This document shows, piece by piece, positions 14,968 to 52,629 of a stretch of DNA of 64,000 nt (its first letter is position 1; every line of letters begins with the position of its first letter). The notes under the pieces are model-generated. The model made no database searches. It was not told the DNA's origin and worked only from the letters and a program-made list of their open reading frames with translations. This stretch comes from a virus (taxonomy: Duplodnaviria > Caudoviricetes), in the IMG/VR virus record IMGVR_UViG_3300009108_000480, one strand, 5' to 3'. The translations under genes were made by a program, and so were the position numbers.

Positions 14968-15546
14968 ATGGCACAGACAAGCACAACATTATTATCAAAT
15001 AAAACGCATAAAGCGGATATTACAGGCACAGATATCAGTTTTACTGCAACAGGTACTGAATATAAAATTAGTGCAACTAGCACTAGTCTTGGCAATCTTG
15101 CACAATACGATTTAATTACAGTAACCGGTACTACAAATAATAATTCAACTTTTACTGTAAAAAGTGTTGCAAGTGACGGTTTATCAATTATTGTTGAAGA
15201 AATTGTTACAACAGAAACAGCCGATGGCTCAACAACGTATACTATTGATAATACAGGATTTGTTAGTGCTAAAGCAAAAGGTGATGGCTATTATTCACAA
15301 GTAGATGGTGTACATACTGTGGCATACAAAGTAGATGCTACACTTACAGGATCAATTAAAATGCAAGGTACACTTGCTTCTACTCCTACTGAAGAAGATT
15401 GGTTTGATATTTCAGGCACTACATTTACAACAGATCAAAGCACTTTAATTAGCTCAAATAATTTTACAGGAAATTTTGTATATGTTAGAGCTAAAGCAAC
15501 ATCAACTACTGCTGGTTCTATTACATCAATTCAGTTAAATTCTTAA
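14968..15546 (+). CDS. Thr/Ser-rich beta-strand protein, possible virion structural protein
   Basis: TAAATA box 6 nt before ATG; T/S/G-rich composition. Confidence 0.5.
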   Translation: MAQTSTTLLSNKTHKADITGTDISFTATGTEYKISATSTSLGNLAQYDLITVTGTTNNNSTFTVKSVASDGLSIIVEEIVTTETADGSTTYTIDNTGFVSAKAKGDGYYSQVDGVHTVAYKVDATLTGSIKMQGTLASTPTEEDWFDISGTTFTTDQSTLISSNNFTGNFVYVRAKATSTTAGSITSIQLNS

Positions 15547-28227: not shown

Positions 28228-29061
28228 ATGGCACGTAAAAAACCTTACACAGATAATTTTGCAGACTTGGTTGCTCGTTTGAACGCAATGAGCAATATGA
28301 CTCCTGAACAAGAACGAAAATCTTTGTTGGAATCCGCTAGTGCTGAACCAAGACTATTAGATGAAAAAGATGTTAGCCTAGCAGATATTGCCAAATTAGC
28401 TGGAATTAAAGAATACGTTGATCCAGTAAAAGTTTCTAAAAAAGCAAAAAAATTAGTTGAGGAAATTACCAAACCAGAACCAACATCTAGTATTACTAAA
28501 GCAATAAAAGAATCCGATGCTGATGATTCAATATCAGCAGGTATTAAAAAAGCAGTAACAGAAGAAACTAAAAGATTAGACAAAATTACAGAGCTTGAAT
28601 CACAATTGGCAGAATTAAAAGCACAAGAAAAAGAAGATGCAACTTTAGATGATAAAACATTTAGAGAAAGATTTGTTTCAGAAATAACTGAGTACGTAAA
28701 AAAAGCCGAAGGAACTGAATTAGCAGAACTTTACAATAAGTTTTCAATGAATGAAGTAGAGTTACAAGAAAAAAACTTCTTAATTAAAACACCAGAAACA
28801 AAAGAAGTTATTGCTGATGCAGAGGCAAAAGAAGCAGAAGCTAACGCAGAAGTTGTACAAGAAAAAGAACCTAAAGCAGAAGAACCAGCAATCGAAGAAC
28901 CAGCAATCGAAGAACCAGCAATCGAAGAACCAGCAATCGAAGAACCAGCTGTGGAAATGGATGCTGTTCAACCAGAAGTAGAAATTCCAACAAAAGACAA
29001 ATTTACAAACGACTTGGATCCTGCACCAAAGGCTCCAAAAACTGAATCTACGAAAAAATAA
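28228..29061 (+). CDS. Acidic coiled-coil protein with EEPAI repeats, possible head core/scaffold-like protein
   Basis: Perfect TATAAATA (28214-28221) 6 nt before ATG; Glu/Ala/Lys-rich. Confidence 0.5.
   Translation: MARKKPYTDNFADLVARLNAMSNMTPEQERKSLLESASAEPRLLDEKDVSLADIAKLAGIKEYVDPVKVSKKAKKLVEEITKPEPTSSITKAIKESDADDSISAGIKKAVTEETKRLDKITELESQLAELKAQEKEDATLDDKTFRERFVSEITEYVKKAEGTELAELYNKFSMNEVELQEKNFLIKTPETKEVIADAEAKEAEANAEVVQEKEPKAEEPAIEEPAIEEPAIEEPAIEEPAVEMDAVQPEVEIPTKDKFTNDLDPAPKAPKTESTKK
28879..28953 (+). repeat. Coding 15-bp tandem repeat GAAGAACCAGCAATC, 4 perfect copies plus 1 degenerate
   Basis: Directly visible; encodes (EEPAI)4 EEPAV. Confidence 0.95.
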
Positions 29062-29080
29062 TTTCCAATAAATACCTAGT

Positions 29081-29326
29081 ATGTCTGAACTAGAACAACA
29101 TTTACCTTACAACTATAAACAATATCTCGATGATGTTACCAAAATGCGTCAAAGAGGACATATTGCTACAGGTGAACAAACAGCACATCCACAATCAGCA
29201 GGTTCTAGAGGATTAGCAAAGGCTGAAGATTTTATAAATTCTCCAAATCAAATAATGAAGGATAACGACATTACTGAAGTAAATCCTGAATTAGCACGTA
29301 TCAAAAAATTATCTGGTTTAATCTAA
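29081..29326 (+). CDS. Hypothetical protein
   Basis: TAAATA 6 nt before ATG; ends ELARIKKLSGLI. Confidence 0.6.
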   Translation: MSELEQHLPYNYKQYLDDVTKMRQRGHIATGEQTAHPQSAGSRGLAKAEDFINSPNQIMKDNDITEVNPELARIKKLSGLI

Positions 29327-29336
29327 AAAAAACCAT

Positions 29337-29365
29337 TTGCTCTACTCTTAAAACTGTTATATACT
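29337..29365 (+). promoter_or_regulatory. Sigma70-type promoter of DNA polymerase operon
   Basis: TTGCTC (29337-29342), 17 nt, TATACT (29360-29365); AAGGA RBS before 29389. Confidence 0.6.
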
Positions 29366-29388
29366 ACTATTAACAACAAAGGAAATAT

Positions 29389-29646
29389 ATGGCAGTAAGA
29401 AACTTTAACGACGGCGAAAAACAAAAGCTAATCCAAATCATTTCTCAAGGATCACAAGTCCTAGGAGAAGTAGACGATCTTAAATCAGGATTAAGAGATA
29501 CAGTTAAATCAATAGCAGAGGAACTAGAATTAAAACCCGCATTGATTAACAAAGCGATTTCAATTGCTCATAAAGGAAATTATCAGAACTTGTCAGATGA
29601 TATGGACACTTTAGATTCCATATTAACGGCGGCAGGTAAGATATAG
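29389..29646 (+). CDS. Small helical DNA-binding protein (T4 DsbA/GapR-like)
   Basis: Size and pattern (DDLKSGLRDTVKSIAEELELKPALINKAISIAHK) resemble that family. Confidence 0.5.
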   Translation: MAVRNFNDGEKQKLIQIISQGSQVLGEVDDLKSGLRDTVKSIAEELELKPALINKAISIAHKGNYQNLSDDMDTLDSILTAAGKI

Positions 29647-29927
29647 TGTATCGTTTACTCAAAGAATTTTGGGTAAACAGTTATAAAACGGACCAAGTTG
29701 CTTTTTGGAATGAGCTGTTATCTGTAATTGTAACAATTATGGGTTCCTGTATTTTAACATTTACCTCACCACACCCAACAATGCATTATGTATTTCCATT
29801 GTACTTGCTAGGCTCTAGTACTTTGTGTTATGCTAGTTGGAGAAGAAGAAGCATTTGGATTGTAACTTTATCCGGATGGTTTACATTAATGAATATAATA
29901 GGAAATTATAGAGTATTTTTACTATGA
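29646..29927 (+). CDS. Small multi-TM membrane protein
   Basis: GTG start, three hydrophobic segments. Confidence 0.55.
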   Translation: MYRLLKEFWVNSYKTDQVAFWNELLSVIVTIMGSCILTFTSPHPTMHYVFPLYLLGSSTLCYASWRRRSIWIVTLSGWFTLMNIIGNYRVFLL

Positions 29928-32587
29928 GTTACATAGACGCTTTATATAAAAAAGATGAAGACAAAGTATATGTAGTTGAAAGAAACTCTAAAGGTAAAAG
30001 AATTTTTGTAGACTATGATGCTAGATATGTATTCTATTATCCAGACTCTAGAGGTAAGCATAGATCTATGACTGGACTATCATTACAAAAAGTACAATGT
30101 AGAACTTCAAAAGAATTCATTAAAGAGCAACGGATAAGATCCAATAAAACTCTTTATGAACAAGATATCAATCCAGTGTTTAGATGTTTGGAAGAAAATT
30201 ATCTAGGCAAGGAAACTCCTAAACTGAACACTATGTTTTTTGATATCGAGGTGGATTTTGATCCTGAAAAGGGTTATGCCACAACTGACGATCCGTTTAT
30301 GCCCATTACTGCCATTAGTTGTTATATGAGCTGGACGGATCAGTTAGTTACTTTTGCACTAGTACCTAAAACACTATCTACACAAGATGCTAAAATGCAA
30401 ACAGAACGATTCTCTAACTGTATGTTATTTCAAAAAGAAAAAGATATGTTAGATGCATTTCTTACACTAGTTGAAGAAGCAGATGTTATATCAGGTTGGA
30501 ACTCTGAAGGATATGATATTCCATACACAGTAGGTAGAATACAAAAAGTATTAAGTTCCGATGATACAAGACGTTTATGTTTTTGGGGTGAGAAGCCCAA
30601 GAAAAGAACATTTGAAAAATATGGTAGAGAACAATTAAGTTATGATTTAGTTGGACGAGTACACTTAGACTTATTAGAATTATATAGAAAATACACATAT
30701 GAGGAAAGACATTCATTTAGATTAGATGCAATTGGTGAACACGAACTAGGTGAGAAAAAAACTGTTTACGAAGGATCATTAGATTCACTTTATAAAAATG
30801 ACTTCGGATTGTTTATAGAATACAACAGACAAGACTGTAATCTACTTGCTAAACTAGAAAAAAAATTAAAATTTATTGAACTTGCCAACGAAATTGCACA
30901 CCAAAATACTGTGTTGCTACAAACAACAATGGGTGCAGTTGCAGTAACTGAACAAGCAATAGTTAATGAAGCACATAGACGTGGCATGATTGTTCAAGGT
31001 AGACGTTATAGAAAAGAAGGAGAAGAAGTACAAACGGCGGCAGGTGCTTATGTGGCAACTCCAAAAAAAGGAATGCATAATTGGATAGGATCAATGGATA
31101 TTAATTCACTATATCCTTCAGTTATTAGAGCATTGAATATGGGACCTGAAACTATTGTGGGACAAATAAGACCTGTAATAACATCAGCAGAAATAAACAG
31201 AGCTAAATTTCAAAAAAAATCATTTGCGGCGGCTTGGGAAGGACAATTTGGTAGTTGGGAATATCAAGCAGTAATGAAACAAGATAAAGGTACTGAACTT
31301 ATTGTAGATTGGGCTGATGATACATCTGTAAGAATGTCAGCGGCACAATTATATGATATTATATTTGATGGCAAAAACAAATGGATGTTAAGTGCTAATG
31401 GTACAATATTTACATATGAGTTTGAAGCAATTATTCCAGGCTTATTAAAACGTTGGTATACTGAAAGACAAGAAATGCAACGTAAAATGGATGCTTGTGG
31501 TGAAAACGAAATTGAAAGATCATTTTGGGATAAAAGACAACTTGTTAAAAAAATTAATTTAAACAGTTTATATGGAGCACTTTTAAATCCAGGTTGTAGA
31601 TTTTTTGACATAAGAATTGGACAATCAGTAACATTAACAGGTCGATGCATTACAAAACATATGGCGGCAAAAGTAAATGACATTGTTGCGGGCAAATATG
31701 ATCATTCTGGCCAATCTATAATATATGGAGATACAGATTCAGTTTATTTTACTGCACATAAAACTTTAAAAAATGATATTGACGCAGGCAAAATTACTTG
31801 GAATAAAGATTCAGTAATTGCTTTATATGATAAAATTGCAGAGGAAATGAATACAACATTTACAGGTTATATGACTAAAGCATTTCATTGCCCAAATACT
31901 CGTGGCTCTATTATTAAAGCAGGTAGAGAACTTGTAGCAATTAAAGGTTTGTTTATTACAAAGAAAAGATATGCAGTACTGTATTATGATAGAGAAGGTG
32001 AACGTGTAGATAATGCAGGTAGAGAGGGCAAAGTGAAAGCTATGGGATTAGATTTAAAAAGATCAGATACTCCTGTATTTGTTCAAGATTTTTTAAGTGA
32101 AATACTGTATATGGTATTAACAGGTAAAACTGAAGAGCAAGTATTAGAAGCAATTACAAATTTTAGAGCAGAATTTAAAGCAAAACCAGGTTGGCAAAAA
32201 GGATCTCCTAAACGAGCAAATAACGTAACCAAGTATACTGAATTAGAAAAGAAACAAGGCAAAGCAAATATGCCAGGACACATACGAGCAAGTATGAATT
32301 GGAATAATTGCAAACAAATGTATAATGACAAATACTCATTGCCAATTACAGATGGTGCAAAAGTAATTGTATGTAAACTTAAAAACAATCCATTAGGATA
32401 TACATCTGTTGCATACCCTACAGATGAATTACGTATTCCACAATGGTTCCAAGAATTGCCATTTGATAACGAAGCAATGGAACAAACTATACTAGATGGC
32501 AAACTAGATAATTTAATTGGTGTATTAGACTGGGATATACAAAGCACTGAAACCAGTAATACATTCAACAAACTTTTTGAAATCTAA
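29924..32587 (+). CDS. Family B DNA polymerase with 3'-5' exonuclease (T4 gp43-like)
   Basis: Exo FFDIEVD, WNSEGYDIPY, YNRQD; Pol SMDINSLYPS, KINLNSLYG, YGDTDS; no intein or intron. Confidence 0.97.
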   Translation: MSYIDALYKKDEDKVYVVERNSKGKRIFVDYDARYVFYYPDSRGKHRSMTGLSLQKVQCRTSKEFIKEQRIRSNKTLYEQDINPVFRCLEENYLGKETPKLNTMFFDIEVDFDPEKGYATTDDPFMPITAISCYMSWTDQLVTFALVPKTLSTQDAKMQTERFSNCMLFQKEKDMLDAFLTLVEEADVISGWNSEGYDIPYTVGRIQKVLSSDDTRRLCFWGEKPKKRTFEKYGREQLSYDLVGRVHLDLLELYRKYTYEERHSFRLDAIGEHELGEKKTVYEGSLDSLYKNDFGLFIEYNRQDCNLLAKLEKKLKFIELANEIAHQNTVLLQTTMGAVAVTEQAIVNEAHRRGMIVQGRRYRKEGEEVQTAAGAYVATPKKGMHNWIGSMDINSLYPSVIRALNMGPETIVGQIRPVITSAEINRAKFQKKSFAAAWEGQFGSWEYQAVMKQDKGTELIVDWADDTSVRMSAAQLYDIIFDGKNKWMLSANGTIFTYEFEAIIPGLLKRWYTERQEMQRKMDACGENEIERSFWDKRQLVKKINLNSLYGALLNPGCRFFDIRIGQSVTLTGRCITKHMAAKVNDIVAGKYDHSGQSIIYGDTDSVYFTAHKTLKNDIDAGKITWNKDSVIALYDKIAEEMNTTFTGYMTKAFHCPNTRGSIIKAGRELVAIKGLFITKKRYAVLYYDREGERVDNAGREGKVKAMGLDLKRSDTPVFVQDFLSEILYMVLTGKTEEQVLEAITNFRAEFKAKPGWQKGSPKRANNVTKYTELEKKQGKANMPGHIRASMNWNNCKQMYNDKYSLPITDGAKVIVCKLKNNPLGYTSVAYPTDELRIPQWFQELPFDNEAMEQTILDGKLDNLIGVLDWDIQSTETSNTFNKLFEI

Positions 32588-32595
32588 ATAACTGT

Positions 32596-33393
32596 ATGTT
32601 AAGCATAGAAGAAATAAAACTGTTAAAAGAAAAACTACAAAAACTTAAAGGTACAGATTGGGAAAAGTTTTTAAAAGAACAAATACAAATTTTAACAGAT
32701 GTGGAATTGGCTGTTGATGCTAATAATCAAGACACAATTGATCGATTAGATAAAACATTAGATTGGTTTAGACGAGATTTAAAAATAAAAAGAGAACAAC
32801 CTATGTTTGATCCAATATTAAGGGGAGCTATAACAAGAAAAATATTCCAATTTGCTAAAACTAATATCTATAATAGTCTTGAAATTGGTCCTGGTACAGG
32901 TATGTTTTCTAAAGACTTTAGAGCATGGCGATTAAATTATTTTCTTGAAGTACTGCCTGAACTAGAAGCAAAAATACGAAGAAGATTTCCTCCACCTCAT
33001 CAAAAATATCTTAAATTTTATCTAACACGCAATACTGAATGTTCAAATATTCCACAAGGTTCTTGCAATCTTGTGTTTAGCTGGGATACCTTTGTATTCT
33101 TTACACAACAACACATACAACAATACCTACACGACATTAAAAGAGTATTAATACCAGGTGGTTATTGTTTTATACATTATGCAGATTGCCATTTTGATTA
33201 TGATTTACACGAAGCAAAAAGAGGTTATTGGAACTACAATACCAAAAGTGAAATGGAAAAAATTATTAAAGAAGAAGGTTATGAAATTGTGGAAATGAAA
33301 CAATTTAAACCAGGAGCCAATTATGCCATATTTAAAAAACCTGGTAAACAAAATCCAGCAGTGTATAAAATAAATGAAATTACTATTGATTAA
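32596..33393 (+). CDS. Class I SAM-dependent methyltransferase
   Basis: SLEIGPGTG motif I, LVFSWDTF, RVLIPGG. Confidence 0.85.
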   Translation: MLSIEEIKLLKEKLQKLKGTDWEKFLKEQIQILTDVELAVDANNQDTIDRLDKTLDWFRRDLKIKREQPMFDPILRGAITRKIFQFAKTNIYNSLEIGPGTGMFSKDFRAWRLNYFLEVLPELEAKIRRRFPPPHQKYLKFYLTRNTECSNIPQGSCNLVFSWDTFVFFTQQHIQQYLHDIKRVLIPGGYCFIHYADCHFDYDLHEAKRGYWNYNTKSEMEKIIKEEGYEIVEMKQFKPGANYAIFKKPGKQNPAVYKINEITID

Positions 33394-33414
33394 TTTAACA
33401 AAGGAGTATACAAT
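33386..33414 (+). promoter_or_regulatory. Sigma70-type promoter of clamp/TGT-like operon
   Basis: TTGATT (33386-33391), 17 nt, TACAAT (33409-33414); ATG 6 nt later. Confidence 0.55.
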
Positions 33415-33420
33415 TAACAT

Positions 33421-34158
33421 ATGAAAGATATCTTACAAGACATAGTTAAGCACACGCATGGACTAGGATTTTTAGATCTTGTCAAAATTTCCGGAGATGG
33501 TAGTGAAACTGCTATTGATTCAATGGCAGAAGACAGATCAGTTATCTTGCAAGGAACCTTTAACAAACCACAATCAGAAATGACTGGTACGTTTGGTATG
33601 CCTCAATTGAATAAATTAGATATTCACTTGAAGTGTCCTGAATATCAAGAAAAAGCAAAAATAACTGTAACAAAAGGCAACAGAAATAGTGCTGAAGTTC
33701 CAACAGGAATTCATTTTGAAAACGAAAAGGGAGACTTCAAAAACGATTACAGATTTATGAATGCTGAAATTATCAACGAAAAACTTAAAACAGTTAAGTT
33801 TAAGGGAGTTAAATGGGACGTTGAAATTGAACCAACCGTGGCGAGTGTACAAAGGTTTAACTTTCAATCTATTGCAAATACAGAACATAATTCTTTTGTT
33901 GTTAGAACAGAGAACAATAACCTGATATTTTCATTTGGTGATCAAGCATCACATGGTGGAGAATTTGTTTTTGCAAAAGGAGTGAAAGGAACTCTAAATA
34001 AAGGATGGAGTTGGCCTGTAGCACAGGTATTGCAAATACTGAAACTGTCGGATTCAGCAAAAGTTATATTACATTTCTCAAACGAAGGAGCAATGATGGT
34101 AACGGTTGATTCGGGGTTAGGCAAGTATCAATATATAATTCCAGCCCAGGCGCAATAA
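33421..34158 (+). CDS. Probable DNA sliding clamp (gp45-like)
   Basis: 245 aa, alternating beta/alpha pattern in two halves, next to polB; clamp loader present in window. Confidence 0.55.
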   Translation: MKDILQDIVKHTHGLGFLDLVKISGDGSETAIDSMAEDRSVILQGTFNKPQSEMTGTFGMPQLNKLDIHLKCPEYQEKAKITVTKGNRNSAEVPTGIHFENEKGDFKNDYRFMNAEIINEKLKTVKFKGVKWDVEIEPTVASVQRFNFQSIANTEHNSFVVRTENNNLIFSFGDQASHGGEFVFAKGVKGTLNKGWSWPVAQVLQILKLSDSAKVILHFSNEGAMMVTVDSGLGKYQYIIPAQAQ

Positions 34159-35600
34159 TGGCAGAATATCGGCAAGAACATTTAGGCAAATTTAACAGAA
34201 ACTTTGCAGTGTTCTTGCCTGCAATTTCAAATTTTTACAATACATTTATATCCAGACAACGAACTACCAAAGGTAAACACATTCCAAAGGATAGAATTCC
34301 AAAAGGTTTTGATCAAGACGTTGAAGGTTTAAACTTCATTAATCCAGATAAAGGTTATTTTACATATCCAACTGCATTATATTCGGCAGGACACGCCTGT
34401 TTAGATATGGATAAAGTTACAGATAGAGATTCTATGTGTGTAAACAGAGATAGAAAGTTTAGCACAATAGTAGGTGATTCTGGTGGATATCAAATAGCAA
34501 AAGGTGTTATACAATTCGATTGGAAAGATTTCGAAGGAAATAAAGCAAATGCAGTTAGAAACAATATACTAAACTGGTTAGAACTTACATCAGATTGGGC
34601 AATGACATTAGACGTTCCAACTTGGGCGGCAGATGACTTAAACAAAGGAAAATCAGGATTAAACAGTTTTGAGGATTGTTTAAATGCTACAAAATTTAAT
34701 AATGATTACTTCCAAAAAAATAGACTTGGACAAACAAAATTCTTAAACGTACTACAAGGTGATGATTGGGAAACTGGAACAATTTGGTATGATCAAATGA
34801 AAAACTATAAGTTTGAAGGTTGGGCATTTGGTGGTATTAATATGTGTGATATGGAAATATTACTTAAAAGACTAATTGTAATGAGAGACGAAAAGCAATT
34901 AGACGGCAAAGATTGGATTCACATATTAGGCACATCACAATTAGACTGGGCTTGTTTCTTAACACAAATACAAAGACAACTAAAAAAACATATTAATCCA
35001 AATGTTACAATAAGTTTTGATTCAGCATCGGCATTTTTATCAGTTGCAAATGGATTAACATATACTCAAAATGTGTTTACTCCAAAACGATTTTCTTACA
35101 TTATGGATAAAGCACCAGATGACAAAAGATTAAAAGGATCTGATATTCCATTTCCATTTCAAAGTGCAATTGGTGATAGATTAACAATGGGAGATATTTG
35201 TAGGTATGGCGAAGGAGACCTAAATAAGAATAACAAAGAAGGTAAAACTGCTTGGGACAGTTTTAGCTATTGTTTATTAATGGCTCATAGTGTTTATAAT
35301 CATATTAAAGCAGTACAAGTTGCAAATGATTTAAATGATATTGAAAGTGTGGTACATAAACCACAAGTTAAACATTGGAGAAAAACTAAAGGACAAGACA
35401 ATACAGACGAATTTAGCAATTTTGTTCCAAGAAACATCTTATATTTTAATACATTAGTCGAAGAAGTGTTTACTTCTGAGAACCCAATGGAAGTTATTAA
35501 CAATGCTAAAAGTTTTCTAGCAGATATACGAGGTACACGATGGGCAAGACATACAGGGGGAGGAAAAGGTAAAAATAACTTTAGTTCATTATTTGAATAG
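34158..35600 (+). CDS. tRNA-guanine transglycosylase-fold protein, DpdA-like DNA base-exchange enzyme
   Basis: TGT motifs in order: GDSGGYQ, TLDVP, VLQG, AFGG, HILG, SFDS. Confidence 0.82.
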   Translation: MAEYRQEHLGKFNRNFAVFLPAISNFYNTFISRQRTTKGKHIPKDRIPKGFDQDVEGLNFINPDKGYFTYPTALYSAGHACLDMDKVTDRDSMCVNRDRKFSTIVGDSGGYQIAKGVIQFDWKDFEGNKANAVRNNILNWLELTSDWAMTLDVPTWAADDLNKGKSGLNSFEDCLNATKFNNDYFQKNRLGQTKFLNVLQGDDWETGTIWYDQMKNYKFEGWAFGGINMCDMEILLKRLIVMRDEKQLDGKDWIHILGTSQLDWACFLTQIQRQLKKHINPNVTISFDSASAFLSVANGLTYTQNVFTPKRFSYIMDKAPDDKRLKGSDIPFPFQSAIGDRLTMGDICRYGEGDLNKNNKEGKTAWDSFSYCLLMAHSVYNHIKAVQVANDLNDIESVVHKPQVKHWRKTKGQDNTDEFSNFVPRNILYFNTLVEEVFTSENPMEVINNAKSFLADIRGTRWARHTGGGKGKNNFSSLFE

Positions 35601-35608
35601 GAGGATAT

Positions 35609-35848
35609 ATGACAGGTAAAGACAATTATCAAAAACATTTAAACCGACGCAAAGATAAAAAACTAAAAAAACTACTAGATCATCACGATTATCTAAATAG
35701 AAAAACCAAAGAATTAGACAAAGAACGAGGACATGGTGACAGAAGTGAAGAAAGCAAACAACTACTTTTAAGATTAAAAAAAACCAAATTAGCAATTAAA
35801 GACGAAATTACAAGAGTTACCGAAGAATTAAGCAAACTTACCAAATGA
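35609..35848 (+). CDS. DUF465/YdcH-like small coiled-coil protein
   Basis: H..L...L...LLRLKKTKLAIKDEI. Confidence 0.6.
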   Translation: MTGKDNYQKHLNRRKDKKLKKLLDHHDYLNRKTKELDKERGHGDRSEESKQLLLRLKKTKLAIKDEITRVTEELSKLTK

Positions 35849-35855
35849 AAATAGT

Positions 35856-35883
35856 TTGACAAAATAAAAGGATATGCTATAAT
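35856..35883 (+). promoter_or_regulatory. Sigma70 promoter with extended -10
   Basis: TTGACA (35856-35861), TGc-TATAAT (35878-35883); overlaps track ATG, so the real start is probably 35891. Confidence 0.7.
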
Positions 35884-35890
35884 GCAAGTA

Positions 35891-36427
35891 ATGGAAAGAG
35901 ATTACAAAACCGGTGTAAAAAAAGATATTACAGTTTTCTCAGGTGTGGAAATTGAACACACACCAGCATATGGAAAACAAACATTATTTCTTGCTCGTAA
36001 TGATTTAACATTTGATCAAATACAAGAATGTGCTGTTATGGTGAATGCTGAAGCAATTTATTATGGTGCAAATAGAAGCTATATGCACAGCCAATTCATG
36101 CAAGTACCACAAATTATGAAATTTTTAGAACATGGTTATTATGTAACCGTAGATTATCCTTTTGAATTACACCAACTAGTTAGTCAAAAATTTGCATTGG
36201 TTTGGAAACATGAAAAGTTTATTCCATTTTGTTCAATTATAATGCCAGACTCAGAAGAAGATACATCATTATATTTTAAAATTGATGACGTTGATTTTAA
36301 TAAAACAAATCCCGGTGTATGGACAATGAGTATAAAAGACTTTAAAGATAAAGCAGGATTTACTAAATGGGATGATTATAAAAAAGATGAACCAATAGAG
36401 GAGAGTAAAATATGGTCAATGAGATGA
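35891..36427 (+). CDS. Hypothetical protein in the deazaguanine cluster
   Basis: ORF between TGT-like and QueD-like genes. Confidence 0.6.
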   Translation: MERDYKTGVKKDITVFSGVEIEHTPAYGKQTLFLARNDLTFDQIQECAVMVNAEAIYYGANRSYMHSQFMQVPQIMKFLEHGYYVTVDYPFELHQLVSQKFALVWKHEKFIPFCSIIMPDSEEDTSLYFKIDDVDFNKTNPGVWTMSIKDFKDKAGFTKWDDYKKDEPIEESKIWSMR

Positions 36428-36903
36428 AAAGCGAAGAATTAAGTATCAGTCAATTAGATGCAATAAGAGATAATGAATTAAACGAACAAAGAAATCAAGC
36501 ATTAAAGGAACGAGCAGGTAAGGCATCTAAAATGATTTGGGTAACCTTTCGTAAAGAAGGTATGCACAAATACCCAGCGGCATTAGAAGATCCAAAGTTA
36601 AAAACAGGTGATGAATATGACGTATCATTTTTAGGATATCCGCATAGGCATACATTTCATTTTAAAGTTGCAATAGAAGTATTTCATGATGATAGAGATA
36701 TTGAATTTATACAATTCCAAAGATGGATTTTAAGTTTATATAGTCAAGGCACTTTACAAAACGATTTTAAAAGTTGTGAAATGATGTCAGATGATTTATA
36801 CATTCAAATAACAAAAAAATATCCAGGCAGAAAAATTGAAATAGACGTTTCTGAAGATGGAGAAAATGGATCACACGCAGTTTATGAAAGAAATAACATT
36901 TAA
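36412..36903 (+). CDS. QueD-like T-fold protein (DpdL-like)
   Basis: FLGYPHRHTFHF, SCEMM, VSEDGENG T-fold motifs. Confidence 0.75.
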   Translation: MVNEMKSEELSISQLDAIRDNELNEQRNQALKERAGKASKMIWVTFRKEGMHKYPAALEDPKLKTGDEYDVSFLGYPHRHTFHFKVAIEVFHDDRDIEFIQFQRWILSLYSQGTLQNDFKSCEMMSDDLYIQITKKYPGRKIEIDVSEDGENGSHAVYERNNI

Positions 36904-37204
36904 AGAAAAAAGAGCAACAACAAGAATGGGTTATCTACCAATAGGTGGAGGAGGCTTAAATGCATCTTATACATTTGTAGATGCCGTTGCAAATATCTGT
37001 GCCACTGCAGGTAACCTAGGTATGATATATGGCAAAGATTTTATTTGGGCATATCATGGATATGACGCCGATAATGACGATTGTATTACACTAATGGTTA
37101 AAGAAGAAAAGTATGAAACTTTTTTACATTTAGCACTTAAAAATGATCACAAAATTAAGCATACCCAAAATGGTGATGCTATACTAGTTAAGTCATCTAA
37201 ATAA
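36884..37204 (+). CDS. Hypothetical protein
   Basis: Coupled ORF. Confidence 0.55.
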   Translation: MKEITFKEKRATTRMGYLPIGGGGLNASYTFVDAVANICATAGNLGMIYGKDFIWAYHGYDADNDDCITLMVKEEKYETFLHLALKNDHKIKHTQNGDAILVKSSK

Positions 37205-37209
37205 CATGA

Positions 37210-38367
37210 ATGTCACGCAAACTACTAGACAAAAATTTCTGTGTATTACCTTGGACAGGTTTTCAACTAGAACCTAACGGTATAGTAAAAAACTGCATCA
37301 TTGCTGAAGATACTATTGGCAATATACATCAAAATAGCATAGAAAACATTCTTCAATCAAAAAAGAATCTTGAGATTAAAACTCAAATGCTAAACAAAGA
37401 ATTTCCAAGTAATTGTAAAGGTTGCTATTTTCAAGAAGAAAATCGAGCAAAAAGTTTTGAAAGTATTAGTAGTCGACTATATTATGCAAAAGAATTAGGT
37501 CCGCACATTAGCAATAACTTATTAGATGATAAAAATAACTTTGATTTAAGTCATGTAGATCTTAGATGGAACAATAAATGCAATCAAGCCTGTGTTTATT
37601 GTAACTCTGATTACAGTAGTAAATGGGCACAAGAATTAAACATTAAACAAAAATTTGAAAAGAAAAATGTTGAAAAAGTAAAACAATATGTCTTTAAAAA
37701 TATTAAAAAATTAAAAAACATTTATCTTGCTGGAGGTGAACCTTTGCTTATGAACGATAATAAGGAGTTTCTAGAATTATTATTAAAACAAAATCCTGAT
37801 ATCCATTTAAGAGTAAACACAAATTTAAGTTCTACAGGAACAGGAGTGTTTCAATTGTTATGTCAGTTTAAAAATGTTCATTGGACTATAAGCATAGAAT
37901 CCATAGAAGAAGAATATGAATATATTAGATACCATAGTTCCTGGAATACTTTTTTAAAAAATTTACAACACATACAAACACTTAATCATAGAATTAGTTT
38001 TAATATGTTACATTTTATTCTAAACTATAAAAGCATTTTTAATTGCGTTGACTATTTAAAATCGTTAGGCTTTCACAACAATAATTTTATAATTGGACCA
38101 CTGTATGGACCTTTATTTTTGAACATTAAACATTTACCACAAAAAATATTAAATGAAGTTATTAATATTCTTAAAACCAAAATTAACGAAAAACCAGGAT
38201 TTTACCTACAAAATAGTTTGGAAAATATACTGAAGTATTTGACTGAACCCAATTTTTATGCTAATATAGAACTAGTACGTAGTAGAATAAAAAAAATGGA
38301 TGAGAGACGAAATTTAAATAGTAGGAAAATATTTCCAAAATTATATAAGGAAATGTTTAATGAGTAA
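37210..38367 (+). CDS. Radical SAM protein with N-terminal SPASM/twitch-like domain
   Basis: CVLPW, CKGC, CNQACVYC, AGGEP. Confidence 0.88.
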   Translation: MSRKLLDKNFCVLPWTGFQLEPNGIVKNCIIAEDTIGNIHQNSIENILQSKKNLEIKTQMLNKEFPSNCKGCYFQEENRAKSFESISSRLYYAKELGPHISNNLLDDKNNFDLSHVDLRWNNKCNQACVYCNSDYSSKWAQELNIKQKFEKKNVEKVKQYVFKNIKKLKNIYLAGGEPLLMNDNKEFLELLLKQNPDIHLRVNTNLSSTGTGVFQLLCQFKNVHWTISIESIEEEYEYIRYHSSWNTFLKNLQHIQTLNHRISFNMLHFILNYKSIFNCVDYLKSLGFHNNNFIIGPLYGPLFLNIKHLPQKILNEVINILKTKINEKPGFYLQNSLENILKYLTEPNFYANIELVRSRIKKMDERRNLNSRKIFPKLYKEMFNE

Positions 38368-39700: not shown

Positions 39701-40691
39701 ACCAATTGGATCCTGTGTATTAGTAACAGGAGGAGCTGGATATATTGGCTCACACACCTGTAAAATATTAAAGAAAAATGGATTCACTCCAATAACTATT
39801 GATAGACATATTGAAAGGTTTGGTCATGCAACATTTGGCCCACATTTTCAAGTTGACCTACCTAAAAATCAAAGTTATCTAAACGAAATAATTAAAAGAT
39901 ACGATATACAATCTTGCATACACTTTGCTGGTAGTGCCTCAGTTGGTGAATCTGTAAAAGATCCAAGCAAGTATTATAAAAATAATGTAATAACTACAAT
40001 GGCTCTGCTTGATCAATTAGTACAAAATAATATTAAAACATTTATATTTTCATCAAGTGCGGCTGTATATGGCGATCCCGGAAATCGAAAATGTAGAGAA
40101 GATCGCGGACCAAATCCAATTAACCCATATGGTGTTACAAAATTAATAGTAGAAAGAATGCTTATGGATTATAAAACAGCATATGGCATTTCATCGGTAA
40201 GTTTAAGATATTTTAATGCCGCAGGTGCTGATCCAGAGGAAGAAATTGGAGAATCAAGAACCAAAGAAACTCATTTAATTCCATTGGCCATTAACGCATC
40301 AAGACAATTAAAAACATTTTATATAAATGGCGATAAATTTCCTACAGAAGATGGAACGTGTGTAAGAGATTATGTTCATGTTATGGACCTAGCCGACGCA
40401 CACATTAAGGCTTTAAATTATGCAAATAAAAATTCAGTATGTGAACAAATTAATTTAGGATCAGGTATACCTATTTCTAACAAACAATTATTAGACATCA
40501 TACAAAAACATACCGGTAAAATGGACATAATTGTAAGAGATGGTAGACAAGGAGATCCGGCATATCTTGTAGCTGATATTTTCAAAGCTAAAAAAATATT
40601 AAATTGGTCTCCTACACAAAGTTCTATTGACAATATAGTGGCAACTGCTGTAAAATGGTATAATAAAATACATAAAAAAGAAATACAATAA
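39657..40691 (+). CDS. galE: UDP-glucose 4-epimerase
   Basis: VLVTGGAGYIGSH, SSSAAVYG, YGVTK, LRYFNAAGA, GTCVRDYVHV. Confidence 0.92.
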   Translation: MENTTEHQFPNLNIKPIGSCVLVTGGAGYIGSHTCKILKKNGFTPITIDRHIERFGHATFGPHFQVDLPKNQSYLNEIIKRYDIQSCIHFAGSASVGESVKDPSKYYKNNVITTMALLDQLVQNNIKTFIFSSSAAVYGDPGNRKCREDRGPNPINPYGVTKLIVERMLMDYKTAYGISSVSLRYFNAAGADPEEEIGESRTKETHLIPLAINASRQLKTFYINGDKFPTEDGTCVRDYVHVMDLADAHIKALNYANKNSVCEQINLGSGIPISNKQLLDIIQKHTGKMDIIVRDGRQGDPAYLVADIFKAKKILNWSPTQSSIDNIVATAVKWYNKIHKKEIQ

Positions 40692-41404
40692 TGGATGATA
40701 CATTAAAAGATAGTTGGGATAATACACATGATCCAATTAGCAAACAAATAAAACAAAGAATTAAAAAAGCAGGAAAAAGATTTCACTGTAATGATAATAT
40801 TTCTGAATACATTGAAGATGGTGATTTAGAACAATTACAAGCAGAAGTACAAGAAAAATTACAAGGTGTATTAGAAAGTCTTGTAATTGATACAGAAAAC
40901 GATCACAATACACAGGAAACTGCAAAACGTGTCGCTAAAATGTATGTACAAGAAACATTTGGTGGCAGATATAAACCGTTTCCGAGAGTTACAAGTTTTC
41001 CTAATGTGGGTTACAAGAGTATGTACACTAGTGGTCCAATTAGTATTAAGTCAACGTGTGCTCACCATTTACAAAATATTGTAGGTAATGCTTGGGTAGG
41101 TATTATTCCAACTGGCAAAGTTATTGGTTTGAGTAAGTTTAACAGAATTATACATCACATTGTAGAAAGACCACAGATACAAGAAGAAATGACAACACAA
41201 ATTGCTGATGCATTAAAAGAATACGCACACACAACTCATATTGCAGTAGTAGTTAAAGCAGAACATCATTGTATGACACACAGAGGCGTAAGAGAACAGG
41301 AATCTGATATGACAACTGCAATTATGTTAGGTGCATTTAAAGATGACCCAGCAACTAGAGATGAATTTTATAAAATTTGCATGAGCATGAAGGGCCATGC
41401 ATAA
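40691..41404 (+). CDS. folE: GTP cyclohydrolase I
   Basis: TAKRVAKMY, STCAHH, GLSKFNR, PQIQEEMT, AEHHCM..RGV. Confidence 0.95.
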   Translation: MDDTLKDSWDNTHDPISKQIKQRIKKAGKRFHCNDNISEYIEDGDLEQLQAEVQEKLQGVLESLVIDTENDHNTQETAKRVAKMYVQETFGGRYKPFPRVTSFPNVGYKSMYTSGPISIKSTCAHHLQNIVGNAWVGIIPTGKVIGLSKFNRIIHHIVERPQIQEEMTTQIADALKEYAHTTHIAVVVKAEHHCMTHRGVREQESDMTTAIMLGAFKDDPATRDEFYKICMSMKGHA

Positions 41405-42063
41405 TGAATAATGAACTTCGAAAGAGGTCATTTATAGAGTTAGACGTAGAAATCGATTTCGAAAAACTTTTACAAGAGTATCATATCATAGACAAGAAGT
41501 ATGCTTTCCACAATTACAATACAAATTACTGGGCAGTAAGAAAAAAATATGCTAAAAGTTGGTCTGGTGTATGCCTGACAAGTTCTGATGGAAGTCTATA
41601 CACTGATCTACATGAAAATAGACGAGATATTCCTTTTATAGATACAGAAATAAAAAAACATTGTCCATACATTTACAAATTAATAAAAGATCTAGGCGGC
41701 GACAAATGTAGTGCAAGAATCATGAGGATTTCCCCAAAAGAATCTTTAGTATGGCATAGCCACGTGCAAGAGCACGGACAAGAAGAGAATCAACTTACAG
41801 TGCAAATACCTATAATAGTACCAAAACAATTTGAATATTGTGTGGTTAACAAGAACGAATTTAAATGGTACAAAAGATTTTTTAGACCTTCATGGTTTAA
41901 AAATGCCGAATGCAAAAGACTTGAGACGGGTAAAGCATATATTTTCAATTCCTATCATTACCATAATGTATATAATCATAGCAACGAATATAGAATAACG
42001 TTAATGTTATATCTTGACTTACGAAACCCAACAGTTTATAATTTGGTACAAAGAAGTTTATGA
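41404..42063 (+). CDS. Asp/Asn beta-hydroxylase-like 2OG-Fe(II) oxygenase
   Basis: ARIMRISP...WHSH, GKAYIFN...HNVYN.S.EYRITL. Confidence 0.7.
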   Translation: MNNELRKRSFIELDVEIDFEKLLQEYHIIDKKYAFHNYNTNYWAVRKKYAKSWSGVCLTSSDGSLYTDLHENRRDIPFIDTEIKKHCPYIYKLIKDLGGDKCSARIMRISPKESLVWHSHVQEHGQEENQLTVQIPIIVPKQFEYCVVNKNEFKWYKRFFRPSWFKNAECKRLETGKAYIFNSYHYHNVYNHSNEYRITLMLYLDLRNPTVYNLVQRSL

Positions 42064-42603: not shown

Positions 42604-42850
42604 AGATTTATTAGAAGATGTTAAAGCATATCGTAATACAATGGTTGCTAGAAATTTCCCACATCAAGAAATTACAAACCTTATTATAAAATGGGATCAA
42701 AAACTTCTAGAAGATACACCCGAATACAAACAACGTAAAGAAAGAGAAGCAAAGGAAAAACAGTTAGAAGAATTTAAAAAAAGAGAACAAGAAGAACAAG
42801 AAAATTTAGAAAAAATAGCCAAAGAAGCAAGAGAGGAAGATGCGTCTTAA
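42593..42850 (+). CDS. Hypothetical charged coiled-coil protein
   Basis: Coupled ORF. Confidence 0.5.
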   Translation: MEIKDLLEDVKAYRNTMVARNFPHQEITNLIIKWDQKLLEDTPEYKQRKEREAKEKQLEEFKKREQEEQENLEKIAKEAREEDAS

Positions 42851-43889
42851 TACTGAACTTAAATTAAATTATGCAGATGTTTTGTTACAACCAAAACGTT
42901 CAACATTATCTTCTCGAAAAGATGTTGACATAGAAAGAACATTTACATTTCAAAATTCAAAAGAAACTTATACGTGTGTTCCTATTGTAGCATCTAATAT
43001 GGATGGCGTTGGTACATTTAGTATGGCTAAAGTATTACAGGAATATAAAATGATGACTGTAATAACAAAAACAACAACACCTGAGCAATGGAAACAAGCC
43101 GTAGGACAAGGAATAAAATTAAAATACATATCTGTATGTACAGGTACAGGAAAACTTTGGGATAAAGACGCAGAAGATTATGCCACAATGCAACAAATAT
43201 TAAAAAGTTATCCAGATGTTAAATTTATTACAATTGACGTTGCAAATGGGTATCATGAAAATTATGTAGACTTTGTCGAAAAAGTAAGAGAAGAGTTTCC
43301 TGACAAAACTATAATTGCAGGTAACGTTGTTACTGCAGAAATGGTTGAGCAATTAATTATTAGTGGTGCTGATGTAGTAAAAATTGGTATAGGACCAGGA
43401 TCAGTATGTACAACAAGAACAATGGCTGGTGTAGGTGTTCCACAATTTTCAGCGGTAGTAGAATGTGCTGATGCGGCCAACGGTGTTGGAGGACACATAA
43501 TGGCTGATGGTGGTTGTGTAGAACCAGGTGATGTAGCAAAAGCATTTGGTGGCGGTGCACATTTTGTTATGCTAGGTGGTATGTTAGCAGGACACAATGA
43601 ATCAGAGTTGCCAGTTGTAGATGGAGAAAGAGAATTTTATGGTATGAGTTCTGATAGAGCAAGAGAAATACACGGTAAAAGAAAAGATGGATATAGAGGT
43701 AACGAAGGACGAAGAGTATTTTTACCTGACAGAGGACCTGTATCAGAAACAATTGAAGATATGTTAGGTGGAGTAAGATCCGCTTGTACATATATTGGTG
43801 CAAGAAGATTAAAGGATATACCTAAATGTGCAAGTTTTGTTAGAACAAACAATCCAATTAATAAAGTTTACGACCAATACGAAGATTAA
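42840..43889 (+). CDS. guaC: GMP reductase
   Basis: DVLLQPKRS, ASNMDGVG, IDVANG, GIGPGSVCTTR, MADGG, FYGMSS; lacks CBS domains; GuaC-type SACTYIGA. Confidence 0.93.
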   Translation: MRLNTELKLNYADVLLQPKRSTLSSRKDVDIERTFTFQNSKETYTCVPIVASNMDGVGTFSMAKVLQEYKMMTVITKTTTPEQWKQAVGQGIKLKYISVCTGTGKLWDKDAEDYATMQQILKSYPDVKFITIDVANGYHENYVDFVEKVREEFPDKTIIAGNVVTAEMVEQLIISGADVVKIGIGPGSVCTTRTMAGVGVPQFSAVVECADAANGVGGHIMADGGCVEPGDVAKAFGGGAHFVMLGGMLAGHNESELPVVDGEREFYGMSSDRAREIHGKRKDGYRGNEGRRVFLPDRGPVSETIEDMLGGVRSACTYIGARRLKDIPKCASFVRTNNPINKVYDQYED

Positions 43890-46642: not shown

Positions 46643-47305
46643 ATGTTAGATTTATTAAAAAACGTAGACAAAAGTATGCTGTGGAAACTTGTAGCACTTC
46701 ACGTTATCGTGATTACAGTTTCAAACGGTTTAGTAAACATTCCTGTAGAAATACTTGGAGTTAAACTAACCTGGGCGGCATTCACTTTCCCTTTAGTAGT
46801 AATAGCAACTGACTTAACAGTCAGACTATTGGGTAAAACGATAGCACGGTCTACAATTGCAATAGCCTATCCACTTGCGATCATTGGATCCATTTTGGTA
46901 GTGCTGGCAGAAGGAGCACCTCAATCAGTTGCGTTAAGAATTGGTTTTGCAAGTGCGACTGCGTATGCAATTGGAACTTTGCTAGATGTATATGTCTTCC
47001 AATGGCTGAGAGAAAATTATTCAGCTTGGTGGTTAGCACCTGCAGTATCAACTGTGGTAGCAAACATAATTGACACATACACATTCTTCTTTACAGCATT
47101 CTCAGGTGGCGCCAACGAGTATATGGCGGCTAACTGGGCAGAAATTGCCGGTTCACAAACTGTATTAAAAATTATGGTTGGTTTGATAGTATTCTTACCA
47201 GCTTATGGTTTATTACTTAGACATTTGTCGGGTAAATTTAAAGTTAGTGCAACTGTACAAAAAGCATTTAAAGATGCAAGTAAAGACCTAGTAAAATCAA
47301 AATAA
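46643..47305 (+). CDS. yhhQ: YhhQ/VUT-family queuosine precursor (preQ0/preQ1) transporter
   Basis: SN.LV.IP, TWAAFTFP...TDLTVR, RI..AS..AY..G.LLD, ST..ANIIDT. Confidence 0.9.
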   Translation: MLDLLKNVDKSMLWKLVALHVIVITVSNGLVNIPVEILGVKLTWAAFTFPLVVIATDLTVRLLGKTIARSTIAIAYPLAIIGSILVVLAEGAPQSVALRIGFASATAYAIGTLLDVYVFQWLRENYSAWWLAPAVSTVVANIIDTYTFFFTAFSGGANEYMAANWAEIAGSQTVLKIMVGLIVFLPAYGLLLRHLSGKFKVSATVQKAFKDASKDLVKSK

Positions 47306-50365: not shown

Positions 50366-51253
50366 ATGGAGAAAATTAGGTACTCTGAAATATTTAGAAG
50401 CATACAAGGTGAGGGTCGTTTTGCAGGCGTACCAAGTGTATTTTTTAGAACATTTGGTTGTAATTTTCACTGTCATGGATTTGGACAAGGCAGAGATAAA
50501 AGCAAATGGCTTAAACCAGAAGAAATGCCATATGCTACAATGGATCTTACAAATATTAAACACGTTAAAGACTTACCAGTAGTAGACATTGGTTGTGATG
50601 CTAGTGCCAGTTGGGCGGCAAGATACAAACATCTTGTAGATTGGGATCCGGTTGATGTTATTGCTAAAAAAATATTAAGTCATACACCAGAAGGCAAGTG
50701 GATTTCTTCTACCGGACAAGACATACATCTTGTTATAACAGGTGGCGAACCCTTAATGTGGCAAAGACAATTAGAAGCATTAATAAGACAACCTGAATTT
50801 CGTTTCATAAAAAATATTACATTTGAAACTAATTGTACACAACCATGGAAAGATAATTTTGACAAATTTATGCACGGTTTAACTGCTGGTGATTATACAA
50901 AACATCCAGTTCACGTAACTTGGTCTACATCACCTAAACTATCTATATCAGGAGAGCATTGGGCAAAAGCAATACGTCCTGAAGTTGCTTACCAATATTC
51001 ACAAATACCAAACACACATTTATACTTTAAATTTGTGGTAATGGATGAACAAGATATAGAAGAAGTTGATTTAGCAAGAAAGGCTTTTTCTGACAAAGGA
51101 ATAGAAGCTGACATATATCTTATGCCACTAGGAGCAACGTTAGAAGGACAGGCAAAAACTGGTAGACAAGTAGCGGAAATTTGTTTAAAATATGGATATA
51201 AGTTTTCGCCAAGATTACACGTAGATTTGTTTGGTAATAAATGGGGAACTTAA
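50366..51253 (+). CDS. queE: 7-carboxy-7-deazaguanine synthase (radical SAM)
   Basis: YSEIFRSIQGEG...GVPSVFFR..GCN, VITGGEP, FETN, SPKL, KFVV, IYLMP, SPRLH. Confidence 0.92.
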   Translation: MEKIRYSEIFRSIQGEGRFAGVPSVFFRTFGCNFHCHGFGQGRDKSKWLKPEEMPYATMDLTNIKHVKDLPVVDIGCDASASWAARYKHLVDWDPVDVIAKKILSHTPEGKWISSTGQDIHLVITGGEPLMWQRQLEALIRQPEFRFIKNITFETNCTQPWKDNFDKFMHGLTAGDYTKHPVHVTWSTSPKLSISGEHWAKAIRPEVAYQYSQIPNTHLYFKFVVMDEQDIEEVDLARKAFSDKGIEADIYLMPLGATLEGQAKTGRQVAEICLKYGYKFSPRLHVDLFGNKWGT

Positions 51254-51642: not shown

Positions 51643-52629
51643 ATGACTCATATATTAATAGACACGGCAAATACTTTTTTCCGTGCTAGGCACGTTATTC
51701 GTGGTGATACTAGCGAGAAAATAGGTATGGCTATTCATATTACTATGAATTCTATTAAAAAAGCATGGGCAGATTTTAATGGTTCTCATCTTATATTTTG
51801 TTTAGAAGGACGTAGTTGGCGTAAGGATCATTACGCACCTTATAAAAGAAATAGAAAAGAAACATTTGAAGCAATGAGTGATAAAGAAAAAGAAGAAAAT
51901 AAAATATTTTGGGAGTGCTATGATGACCTTACTAATTTTATTAAAACAAAAACAAATGCAACAGTATTACAAAACTCACGTGCCGAAGCAGACGATTTAA
52001 TTGCACGTTGGATAGATAAACATCCAAACGATAAACACGTTATTTTAAGCACTGATAAAGATTTAAATCAACTTGTAAAAGAAAATGTTAAACAATACAA
52101 TGGGATTACAGAAACAACTATTACACACAAAGGATGGTTTGACAACAAAGGCAACAAAATAATAGATAAAAAAACTGAATTACCTAAAGATGCACCGGAT
52201 ATAGAATGGATAATATTTGAAAAATCTATGAGGGGTGATCCTTCCGATAATATTTTTAGTGCATATCCGGGTGTAAGAACAAAAGGTACTAAAAACAAAA
52301 TAGGATTAAAAGAAGCATTTGGAGATAGACAAGCAAAAGGTTATACATGGAATAATTTAATGCTAACAAAATGGGTAGATCATGAAGGAAAAGAACACAG
52401 AGTTATGGACGATTATGAAAGAAATAAATTATTAGTTGATTTACACGCACAACCAGAAGCTATTGTAGAAGAACTTGATCAAACGATTGCACAGGCTAAG
52501 GCAGAAAATAAAAGTGTAGAACAAGTTGGAATCAGATTCATGAGGTTCTGTGCCAAGTATGATTTAAATAAAATTAGTGAACAGGCTCAATTGTATGTGG
52601 AGCCATTTAATGCGAGGTTAAGTGCATGA
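51643..52629 (+). CDS. T4 RNase H-like 5'-3' exonuclease (FEN-like)
   Basis: ILIDTAN, W R..Y.PYK.NR, EADDLIA, STDKD, GD.SDNI. Confidence 0.9.
   Translation: MTHILIDTANTFFRARHVIRGDTSEKIGMAIHITMNSIKKAWADFNGSHLIFCLEGRSWRKDHYAPYKRNRKETFEAMSDKEKEENKIFWECYDDLTNFIKTKTNATVLQNSRAEADDLIARWIDKHPNDKHVILSTDKDLNQLVKENVKQYNGITETTITHKGWFDNKGNKIIDKKTELPKDAPDIEWIIFEKSMRGDPSDNIFSAYPGVRTKGTKNKIGLKEAFGDRQAKGYTWNNLMLTKWVDHEGKEHRVMDDYERNKLLVDLHAQPEAIVEELDQTIAQAKAENKSVEQVGIRFMRFCAKYDLNKISEQAQLYVEPFNARLSA

Follow-up and report, generated by a model that had tools for sequence, protein, structure and literature searches.

The gene pair considered here lies at positions 33421-35600 of a 64-kb window, by which we mean the whole stretch of DNA analyzed, from an uncultured marine giant phage (IMG/VR record IMGVR_UViG_3300009108_000480). 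Both open reading frames (ORFs) are on the + strand: the first (33421-34158) encodes P0002, a 245-residue protein with the predicted fold of a sliding clamp, and the second (34158-35600) encodes P0001, a 480-residue protein with the predicted fold of a tRNA-guanine transglycosylase (TGT). The observations set out below point to P0001 as a likely DNA-modifying transglycosylase of the DpdA type, one that may be held at the phage replication machinery by a short C-terminal peptide resembling that of the phage DNA polymerase. The two genes meet at CAATAATGGCA, where the TAA stop of the clamp gene and the ATG start of the P0001 gene have base 34158 in common; the TAATG coupling described in an earlier note on this DNA is borne out by this junction.

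That note had also placed the pair next to polB and proposed that the two genes are co-transcribed. The gene for the family B DNA polymerase polB (887 residues; 29924..32587, +; PF00136 E 1e-36 and PF03104 E 2e-19) is indeed upstream, but it is not directly adjacent, as a gene for a class I S-adenosylmethionine (SAM) methyltransferase (265 residues; 32596..33393, +; Methyltransf_11/23/25) intervenes between polB and the clamp gene. The methyltransferase gene is confined to the closest clade, being found in 8 of the 87 related loci that we counted (80 IMG/VR loci together with metagenome contigs and phage PA5oct, found with a 10-sequence alignment and sharing 50-90% identity). Possible substrates of the methyltransferase are DNA and the deazaguanine base. 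Co-transcription of the clamp and TGT-like genes is plausible, given that no terminator-like site was found across the scanned interval 29000-37500, and no strong promoter-like site was found from the start of polB to the end of the P0001 gene. A perfect sigma-70 consensus (12/12; TTGACA, 16 nucleotides, TATAAT, with a TG extension) is present at 35856-35883 (+), in the gap just 5' of a gene for a 181-residue protein and a DpdL-like gene. Given this promoter, the base-synthesis genes may form a transcription unit separate from that of the clamp/TGT-like pair upstream.

In searches of sequence libraries (Pfam, NCBIfam, PHROGs and PDB sequences), the only match to P0002 was a PHROG of unknown function. 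Its AlphaFold2 model, with a predicted local distance difference test (pLDDT) score of 91.4, shows a two-domain DNA-clamp fold within the 245 residues. Foldseek returned at least 500 matches to this model at E<=0.001; the 50 listed are all PCNA, including RFC-bound PCNA, with E 3e-11 and TM values of 0.65-0.73. The predicted structure of P0002 (33421..34158, +) therefore matches a PCNA/gp45-type sliding clamp. A homolog of this clamp follows polB in 86/87 loci. In PA5oct, the homolog EST35_0314 (L001:6918-7664), which has 37% identity to P0002, bears the annotation "structural protein, ESI-MS/MS", a label that reflects its detection in the virion proteome, which is an odd location for a sliding clamp.

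Searches of the same four libraries likewise gave no match to P0001. The Pfam TGT family, PF01702, gave 0 matches to P0001 at E<=1 and matched 3 of 55 homologs, all at E>=0.0045. As a calibration, PF01702 also finds nothing in the genomes of phages 9g, nt-1, phiST and HVTV-1, which encode DpdA1-4; the absence of a Pfam match is therefore typical of the DpdA enzyme class. An AlphaFold2 model built from a 55-sequence alignment of the P0001 family (here called A2; identities 27-52%) has a mean pLDDT of 92.6, and Foldseek found 188 PDB matches to it at E<=0.001, of which the 50 listed are all TGTs. Alignment of the model with 2ash/1p0e by VIA-align gave a Z of 19.3 with ~303 residues aligned at a root-mean-square deviation of 4.5 A, spanning residues 13-432. 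A search of the P0001 profile against the PDB was weak (E ~0.55 to Z. mobilis TGT), with the DSGG motif, the Asp156 region and the Gln203/GG region co-linear. Based on these models, P0001 is almost certainly a TGT-fold enzyme.

The catalytic motifs of this fold can be followed through the family. DSGGYQ (residues 107-112; 34476..34493, +) places D107 in alignment with Asp102 of Z. mobilis TGT and with the DSGG motif of DpdA2, and MTLDVPT (residues 149-155; 34602..34622, +) corresponds to the Asp156 region of TGT and to CFDEIP of DpdA2. Further along, HILG (residues 255-258; 34920..34931, +) aligns with HLLG of DpdA2 and FDSAS (residues 287-291; 35016..35030, +) with ISYDS; D288 is the putative nucleophile. 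Eight residues within these motifs (D107, S108, G110, D152, P154, H255, G258 and D288) are invariant across 55/55 A2 homologs, down to 27% identity. We take D288 as the putative equivalent of Z. mobilis TGT Asp280, an assignment made by motif position rather than by residue-level structural alignment. The earlier note had described a 480-residue TGT-fold protein with both Asp motifs and no clear CxCxxC zinc site; the model and the invariance of D107 and D288 agree with the first part of this description, and the second part is also correct, as discussed below.

The C terminus of P0001 resembles that of the polymerase. Residues 462-480 (35541..35597, +) form a tail that is disordered in the AlphaFold2 model (pLDDT <50) and that closes with the peptide NNFSSLFE (residues 473-480; 35574..35597, +), a putative clamp-binding motif like the one in the polB tail, NTFNKLFEI (residues 879-887; 32558..32584, +). 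Among all ORFs of at least 50 residues in the six frames of the window, the tail motif occurs only in polB, in P0001 and in one spurious antisense ORF. Across the related loci, the pattern N.Phi..PhiF lies within 60 residues of the C terminus in 74/83 polB proteins (89%) and 58/85 TGT-like proteins (68%), in 9 of 1706 other + strand ORFs (0.5%), and in none of the clamp, 181-residue (g181), DpdL, GT, FolE, QueE or FEN proteins. It lies within the last 12 residues of 120/120 close homologs of P0001.

The polB and TGT-like tails also vary in step between lineages. At locus L054, polB ends in NTFGSLFSFD and the TGT-like protein in NTFGSLFSFEE; at L084 the corresponding tails are NTFNKLFDFE and NEFNKLFDFDD; at L006, FNSLFSF-stop and FSSLFSFD; at L007, LDDLFDF-stop and VNNLFDFS-stop; and in Vibrio phage 2.275.O, NNTDLFDW-stop and NNNDLFGW-stop. 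Most of the relatives at 50-57% identity (L030-L097) carry an acidic extension of ~30 residues after the motif, absent from P0001, which holds a second conserved element around D-F/L-x-N-P-D-D-D-x-L-R-A-L-E and may be a second docking site.

In phage T4, the extreme C terminus of the polymerase gp43 (...SLDFLFG) binds the gp45 clamp, and T4 ligase was spotted as a gp45 client by the likeness of a loop to the gp43 C terminus, after which binding was demonstrated (PMC6212786). The P0001 tail resembles its cognate polB tail in the same way, and P0001 is therefore a probable client of the P0002 clamp. The earlier note had suggested a coupling to the replisome through the clamp, and the co-varying, polymerase-like tail peptide and the T4/RB69 precedent lend support to that suggestion. 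Based on these comparisons, we infer that the tail of P0001 probably tethers the enzyme to the phage clamp. A complex prediction of three clamp copies with P0001 residues 441-480, run without controls, scored 0.21 against a mark of 0.32 and speaks neither for nor against binding. Among the papers listed when the library was searched for DpdA together with clamps, none treats clamp binding by DpdA, as far as titles and abstracts show.

A motif common to polB and the TGT-like protein only does imply a common partner, but it does not give the identity of that partner. It is conceivable that P0001 is a DpdA-type enzyme whose shared peptide docks instead to another hub, such as the clamp loader, the helicase or the single-stranded DNA-binding protein (SSB), or that the peptide serves localization or degradation, and the second conserved acidic element (~NPDDDxLRALEE) that follows the motif in many relatives hints at more partners. 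We nevertheless regard these alternatives as unlikely, because the C-terminal hydrophobic peptide of the T4/RB69 polymerases is itself the clamp-binding element (PMC6212786), which the motifs seen here (SLFD, LFDF) resemble, and because in 86/87 loci the clamp is encoded between the two genes whose products carry the motif.

The second half of our proposal, that the tethered enzyme is of the DpdA type, draws on the kinship of P0001 to the known DpdA subfamilies, on its neighboring genes and on the DNA of a cultured relative. The family is large and mostly marine, comprising >7000 clusters when grouped at 90% identity and 950 at 50% identity; in culture it is represented by the PA5oct group (41% identity), by Sinorhizobium phage Phosso and by Vibrio phage 2.275.O, in all of which the homolog is annotated as hypothetical. 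Kinship was judged by profile-profile probabilities, as 10-20% identity over ~190 alignable columns is too little for a reliable phylogeny. A hidden Markov model (HMM) built from A2 had no match at E<=10 in the genomes of nt-1 (DpdA2), phiST (DpdA3), 9g (DpdA1) or HVTV-1 (DpdA4), and phmmer cross-searches between the P0001 family and DpdA2 gave 0 and 1 marginal matches. Profile-profile comparison of A2 with nt-1 DpdA2 alone gave a probability of 90%, and hhalign of A2 with a 35-sequence DpdA2 alignment (A4) gave 98.85% (E 4e-17), the 188 aligned columns extending from DSGG via HxLG to ISxDS. For phiST DpdA3 (CGPG_00065) the probability was 52.6% over 83 columns, with a Foldseek match to M4SLA5 at E 1.9e-3 and lengths of 259 versus 480 residues, and for 9g DpdA1 it was 0.3%, indicating no homology by hhalign. 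Because the profile match to DpdA2 is strong but there is no mutual HMM detection, the P0001 family, as judged by these profiles, is a sister of DpdA2 and not a strict member. In E. coli, DpdA2 itself incorporates preQ0/preQ1 into DNA (PMC10516641).

The neighborhood of the pair includes genes for 7-deazaguanine synthesis. In 80+ contigs, as far as their length allows, the gene order is polB, clamp, TGT-like, 181-residue gene, DpdL-like, GT-B-like (glycosyltransferase, GT), FolE, QueE-like and FEN. In the window, the 181-residue gene (35882..36427, +) has no family match and stands directly 3' of the TGT-like gene in 76/87 loci; its protein, encoded ahead of the DpdL-like gene, is a candidate component of the modification system. 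The DpdL-like gene (36412..36903, +), present in 70/87 loci, encodes a 163-residue QueD paralog with 33% identity over 118 residues (blastp E 4e-14) to phiST CGPG_00067 (DpdL). Further downstream are a GTP cyclohydrolase I gene (FolE; 40691..41404, +; PF01227 E 1e-47), a YhhQ/Vut_1 transporter gene of the preQ0 transporter family (46643..47305, +; PF02592 E 9e-25) and a gene for a 295-residue QueE-like radical SAM protein (50366..51253, +), which has a weak Pfam radical SAM signal, under the cut-off, and 31% identity (blastp E 6e-31) to a PA5oct protein annotated as 7-carboxy-7-deazaguanine synthase. A 5'-3' exonuclease/FEN (RNase H) gene (51643..52629, +), assigned by PF02739 (E 2e-20) and synteny, marks the far end of the replication block in which the deazaguanine genes are embedded. 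In Vibrio phage 2.275.O, polB, the clamp gene and the P0001 homolog are followed by QueF, YhhQ, QueC, an amidohydrolase gene and FolE, the ortholog of the window's YhhQ there adjoining QueF/QueC.

Other genes are interspersed in this region. A pair of radical SAM paralogs whose N termini give a SPASM-like match (37210-38367 and 43903-45054, +), a gene of the GMP reductase/IMPDH family (42840-43889) and a gene resembling 2-oxoglutarate (2OG) oxygenases (41377-42063) lie amid the deazaguanine genes and are mostly confined to the closest clade. The window's polB is intact, and in several relatives polB is in two ORFs (PA5oct, L001:1611-6837; L024, L043, L056 and L072), split in PA5oct by a Hef-like homing endonuclease gene. 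For Phosso, a 240-residue "virion structural protein" encoded upstream of the P0001 homolog was considered as a clamp and rejected, because by blastp it matches the window gene at 14968-15546 instead; Phosso was therefore left out of the synteny argument.

DNA from a cultured relative bears on the substrate. The DNA of PA5oct is resistant at five G-containing restriction sites (PMC12191111) and hence behaves as G-modified, and Iyer et al. credit this phage with a deazaguanine synthesis/incorporation system (PMC7824862). Given the kinship to DpdA2, the synteny with deazaguanine genes and these PA5oct data, we infer that DNA, not tRNA, is the likely substrate of P0001. The earlier note had made the same prediction, which gains support from this kinship, the conserved base-synthesis block, the gene content of 2.275.O and the restriction resistance of PA5oct. 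The available sequence comparisons make it very likely that P0001 is a DpdA-type DNA 7-deazaguanine transglycosylase belonging to an unnamed family that is sister to DpdA2.

A TGT fold does not by itself define a substrate, and TGT-family enzymes remodeled for protein substrates are described in a preprint (bioRxiv 10.1101/2025.04.06.647259). With its zinc site absent and its N- and C-terminal regions unaligned with DpdA2, P0001 could in principle serve in protein deazaguanylation (as in CBASS Cap10), in free-nucleotide exchange or as a DNA glycosylase that makes no insertion. We consider this improbable, as P0001 retains its two catalytic aspartates and the DSGG/HxLG/xDS motifs exactly as DpdA2 does, the synteny with base-synthesis and replication genes is fixed, and the DNA of PA5oct behaves as though its G were modified. 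Still less probable, to a degree that we would be surprised to see it hold, is a phage TGT for host or phage tRNA (queuosine- or archaeosine-type): the top structural matches are tRNA-modifying TGTs and DSGGYQ is a bacterial TGT-like motif, but P0001 has no Pfam TGT match and no zinc motif, its nearest sequence family is DpdA2, its gene lies between the clamp and DpdL/FolE genes within a replication module, and its tail motif is shared with polB.

Several observations weigh against a clamp-tethered DpdA enzyme. The canonical CxCxxC...H zinc site is absent from P0001, and within the corresponding region only C348 (35/55) and H377 (47/55) are moderately conserved among the homologs. Neither the Pfam TGT model nor HMMER searches against DpdA1-4 detect the family, and the homology to DpdA2 is confined to the catalytic core. 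The ORFs of the window that were scanned yielded neither QueC nor a canonical QueD, which makes the pathway and the base uncertain. The TAATG overlap, which is weak evidence as a sign of clamp coupling, is retained only in the closest clade and at locus L004. In many relatives the tail motif is internal, with the acidic extension after it, and a loose form, Phi-x-x-[LFM]-F, is present in only 36/114 distant family representatives (versus ~9% of shuffled tails); tethering is therefore not universal in the P0001 family. Weighing these points with the evidence above, we lean toward the combined reading, in which P0001 is a DpdA-type DNA transglycosylase and is tethered to the clamp.

We propose the following mechanism. 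D107 and D288, acting as in the TGT mechanism, would excise guanine from double-stranded phage DNA and allow a 7-deazaguanine base to be inserted in its place. This base would be supplied by the neighboring FolE, QueE-like and DpdL-like enzymes, and is probably 7-deazaguanine, 7-carboxy-7-deazaguanine or a decorated derivative. NNFSSLFE of P0001 and NTFNKLFEI of polB could both dock into the hydrophobic pocket of the PCNA-like clamp, such that the enzyme would slide along freshly replicated DNA, modifying it at the fork or immediately behind, before unmodified G is exposed to host nucleases.

Peptides of a similar kind can be found in other DpdA subfamilies. In the DpdA2 family, [FL]-x-x-[LFM]-F is present in the last 12 residues of 53/118 proteins (~45%, versus 1.5% expected), with examples such as ...SLEALFG, ...DLENFFG and ...TLDTFF in T4-like myophage contigs. 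The gp43 polymerase of nt-1 (L101:454-3006) ends in ...TLESFFG; nt-1 DpdA2 has no clear motif, and nt-1 is a phage with only ~0.1% of its G modified. The DpdA1 gene of 9g (L102:3007-3960, -) directly adjoins an annotated replicative beta-type clamp gene, with a polymerase gene next, and its product ends in ...LQDLFDE. Ten DpdA1 relatives (40-100% identity; L103-L119) end in Q/x-x-L/F-F after a variable linker (...QELF, ...QRLF, ...QGFF), and these DpdA1 terminal peptides resemble, in sequence, beta-clamp-binding motifs. It is possible, and we suggest it tentatively, that tethering to the clamp is a principle common to the design of phage DpdA enzymes in general, with three sequence-unrelated subfamilies each using a peptide suited to its own clamp. 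The candidate peptides would be N-x-F-x-x-L-F in the P0001 family, ...L-E-x-L/F-F-G in DpdA2 and a terminal Q-x-L-F in DpdA1. If so, 7-deazaguanine exchange would be replication-coupled, much as DNMT1-PCNA couples maintenance methylation, and how much of the G is replaced might be set by how strong the tail motif is.

Current descriptions of 7-deazaguanine modification in phage DNA treat it as a post-replicative base exchange, and the fast, very high replacement reached in some phages, ahead of restriction, is still without an explanation. A clamp-riding transglycosylase, if our proposal is correct, would be a processive enzyme loaded at the fork and would offer a physical mechanism for such replacement. 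These analyses also define, as probable DpdA enzymes, a marine family of great abundance that is overlooked in standard annotation.

Comparison with known systems helps to place P0001 among transglycosylases. The tRNA TGTs (Z. mobilis, T. maritima and P. horikoshii ArcTGT) share its fold over residues 13-432, with Z of 18.6-19.3, and their DSGG[FY]Q and later Asp/Gln motifs are co-linear with its own. P0001 differs from them in its ~15% identity, in lacking CxCxxC...H and a PUA domain, and in having a helical C-terminal region, a disordered tail and a replication-module context. DpdA2 of Vibrio phages nt-1 and VH7D (Hutinet et al. 2019, 2023) is closer: it is of similar size (~420-465 versus 480 residues), its DSGG, xFDExP/xLDxP, LQG, HxLG and ISxDS motifs align with those of P0001, it too has no Pfam TGT match, and its gene stands beside FolE/QueD-type genes. 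However, only the 188 core columns align, whereas the N- and C-terminal regions diverge. The settings differ as well: DpdA2 genes belong to T4-like myophages, where they lie away from polB, whereas those of the P0001 family directly follow polB and the clamp gene in PA5oct-like and marine jumbo phages, and the P0001 pathway has DpdL and no QueC, unlike the preQ0/G+ setting of DpdA2.

In its accessory genes the window resembles the DpdA3 system of Cellulophaga phage phiST, which comprises FolE, QueD, QueE, DpdL and DpdA3 and in which dDG replaces 100% of G. The two share a DpdL-like protein, FolE, a QueE-like protein and the lack of QueC, and the phiST modification genes adjoin polymerase genes (PMC10516641), as in the window. 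With its 259 residues and marginal similarity, DpdA3 differs from P0001, which therefore probably represents a different transglycosylase subfamily.

For the tethering, the T4/RB69 clamp is the closest comparison. P0002 can be recognized as a relative of gp45 and PCNA by fold only, there being no sequence-level match to them in Pfam, NCBIfam, PHROGs or PDB sequences. The known clients of the T4/RB69 clamp include no DNA base-modifying enzyme, and a base-exchanging enzyme would, if our proposal holds, join the list of clamp clients. The means of attachment would be a familiar one: like gp43, ligase, gp33 and gp55, P0001 carries a short, hydrophobic, polymerase-like peptide on a flexible terminus, with the same x-L-F-D/E-F flavor.

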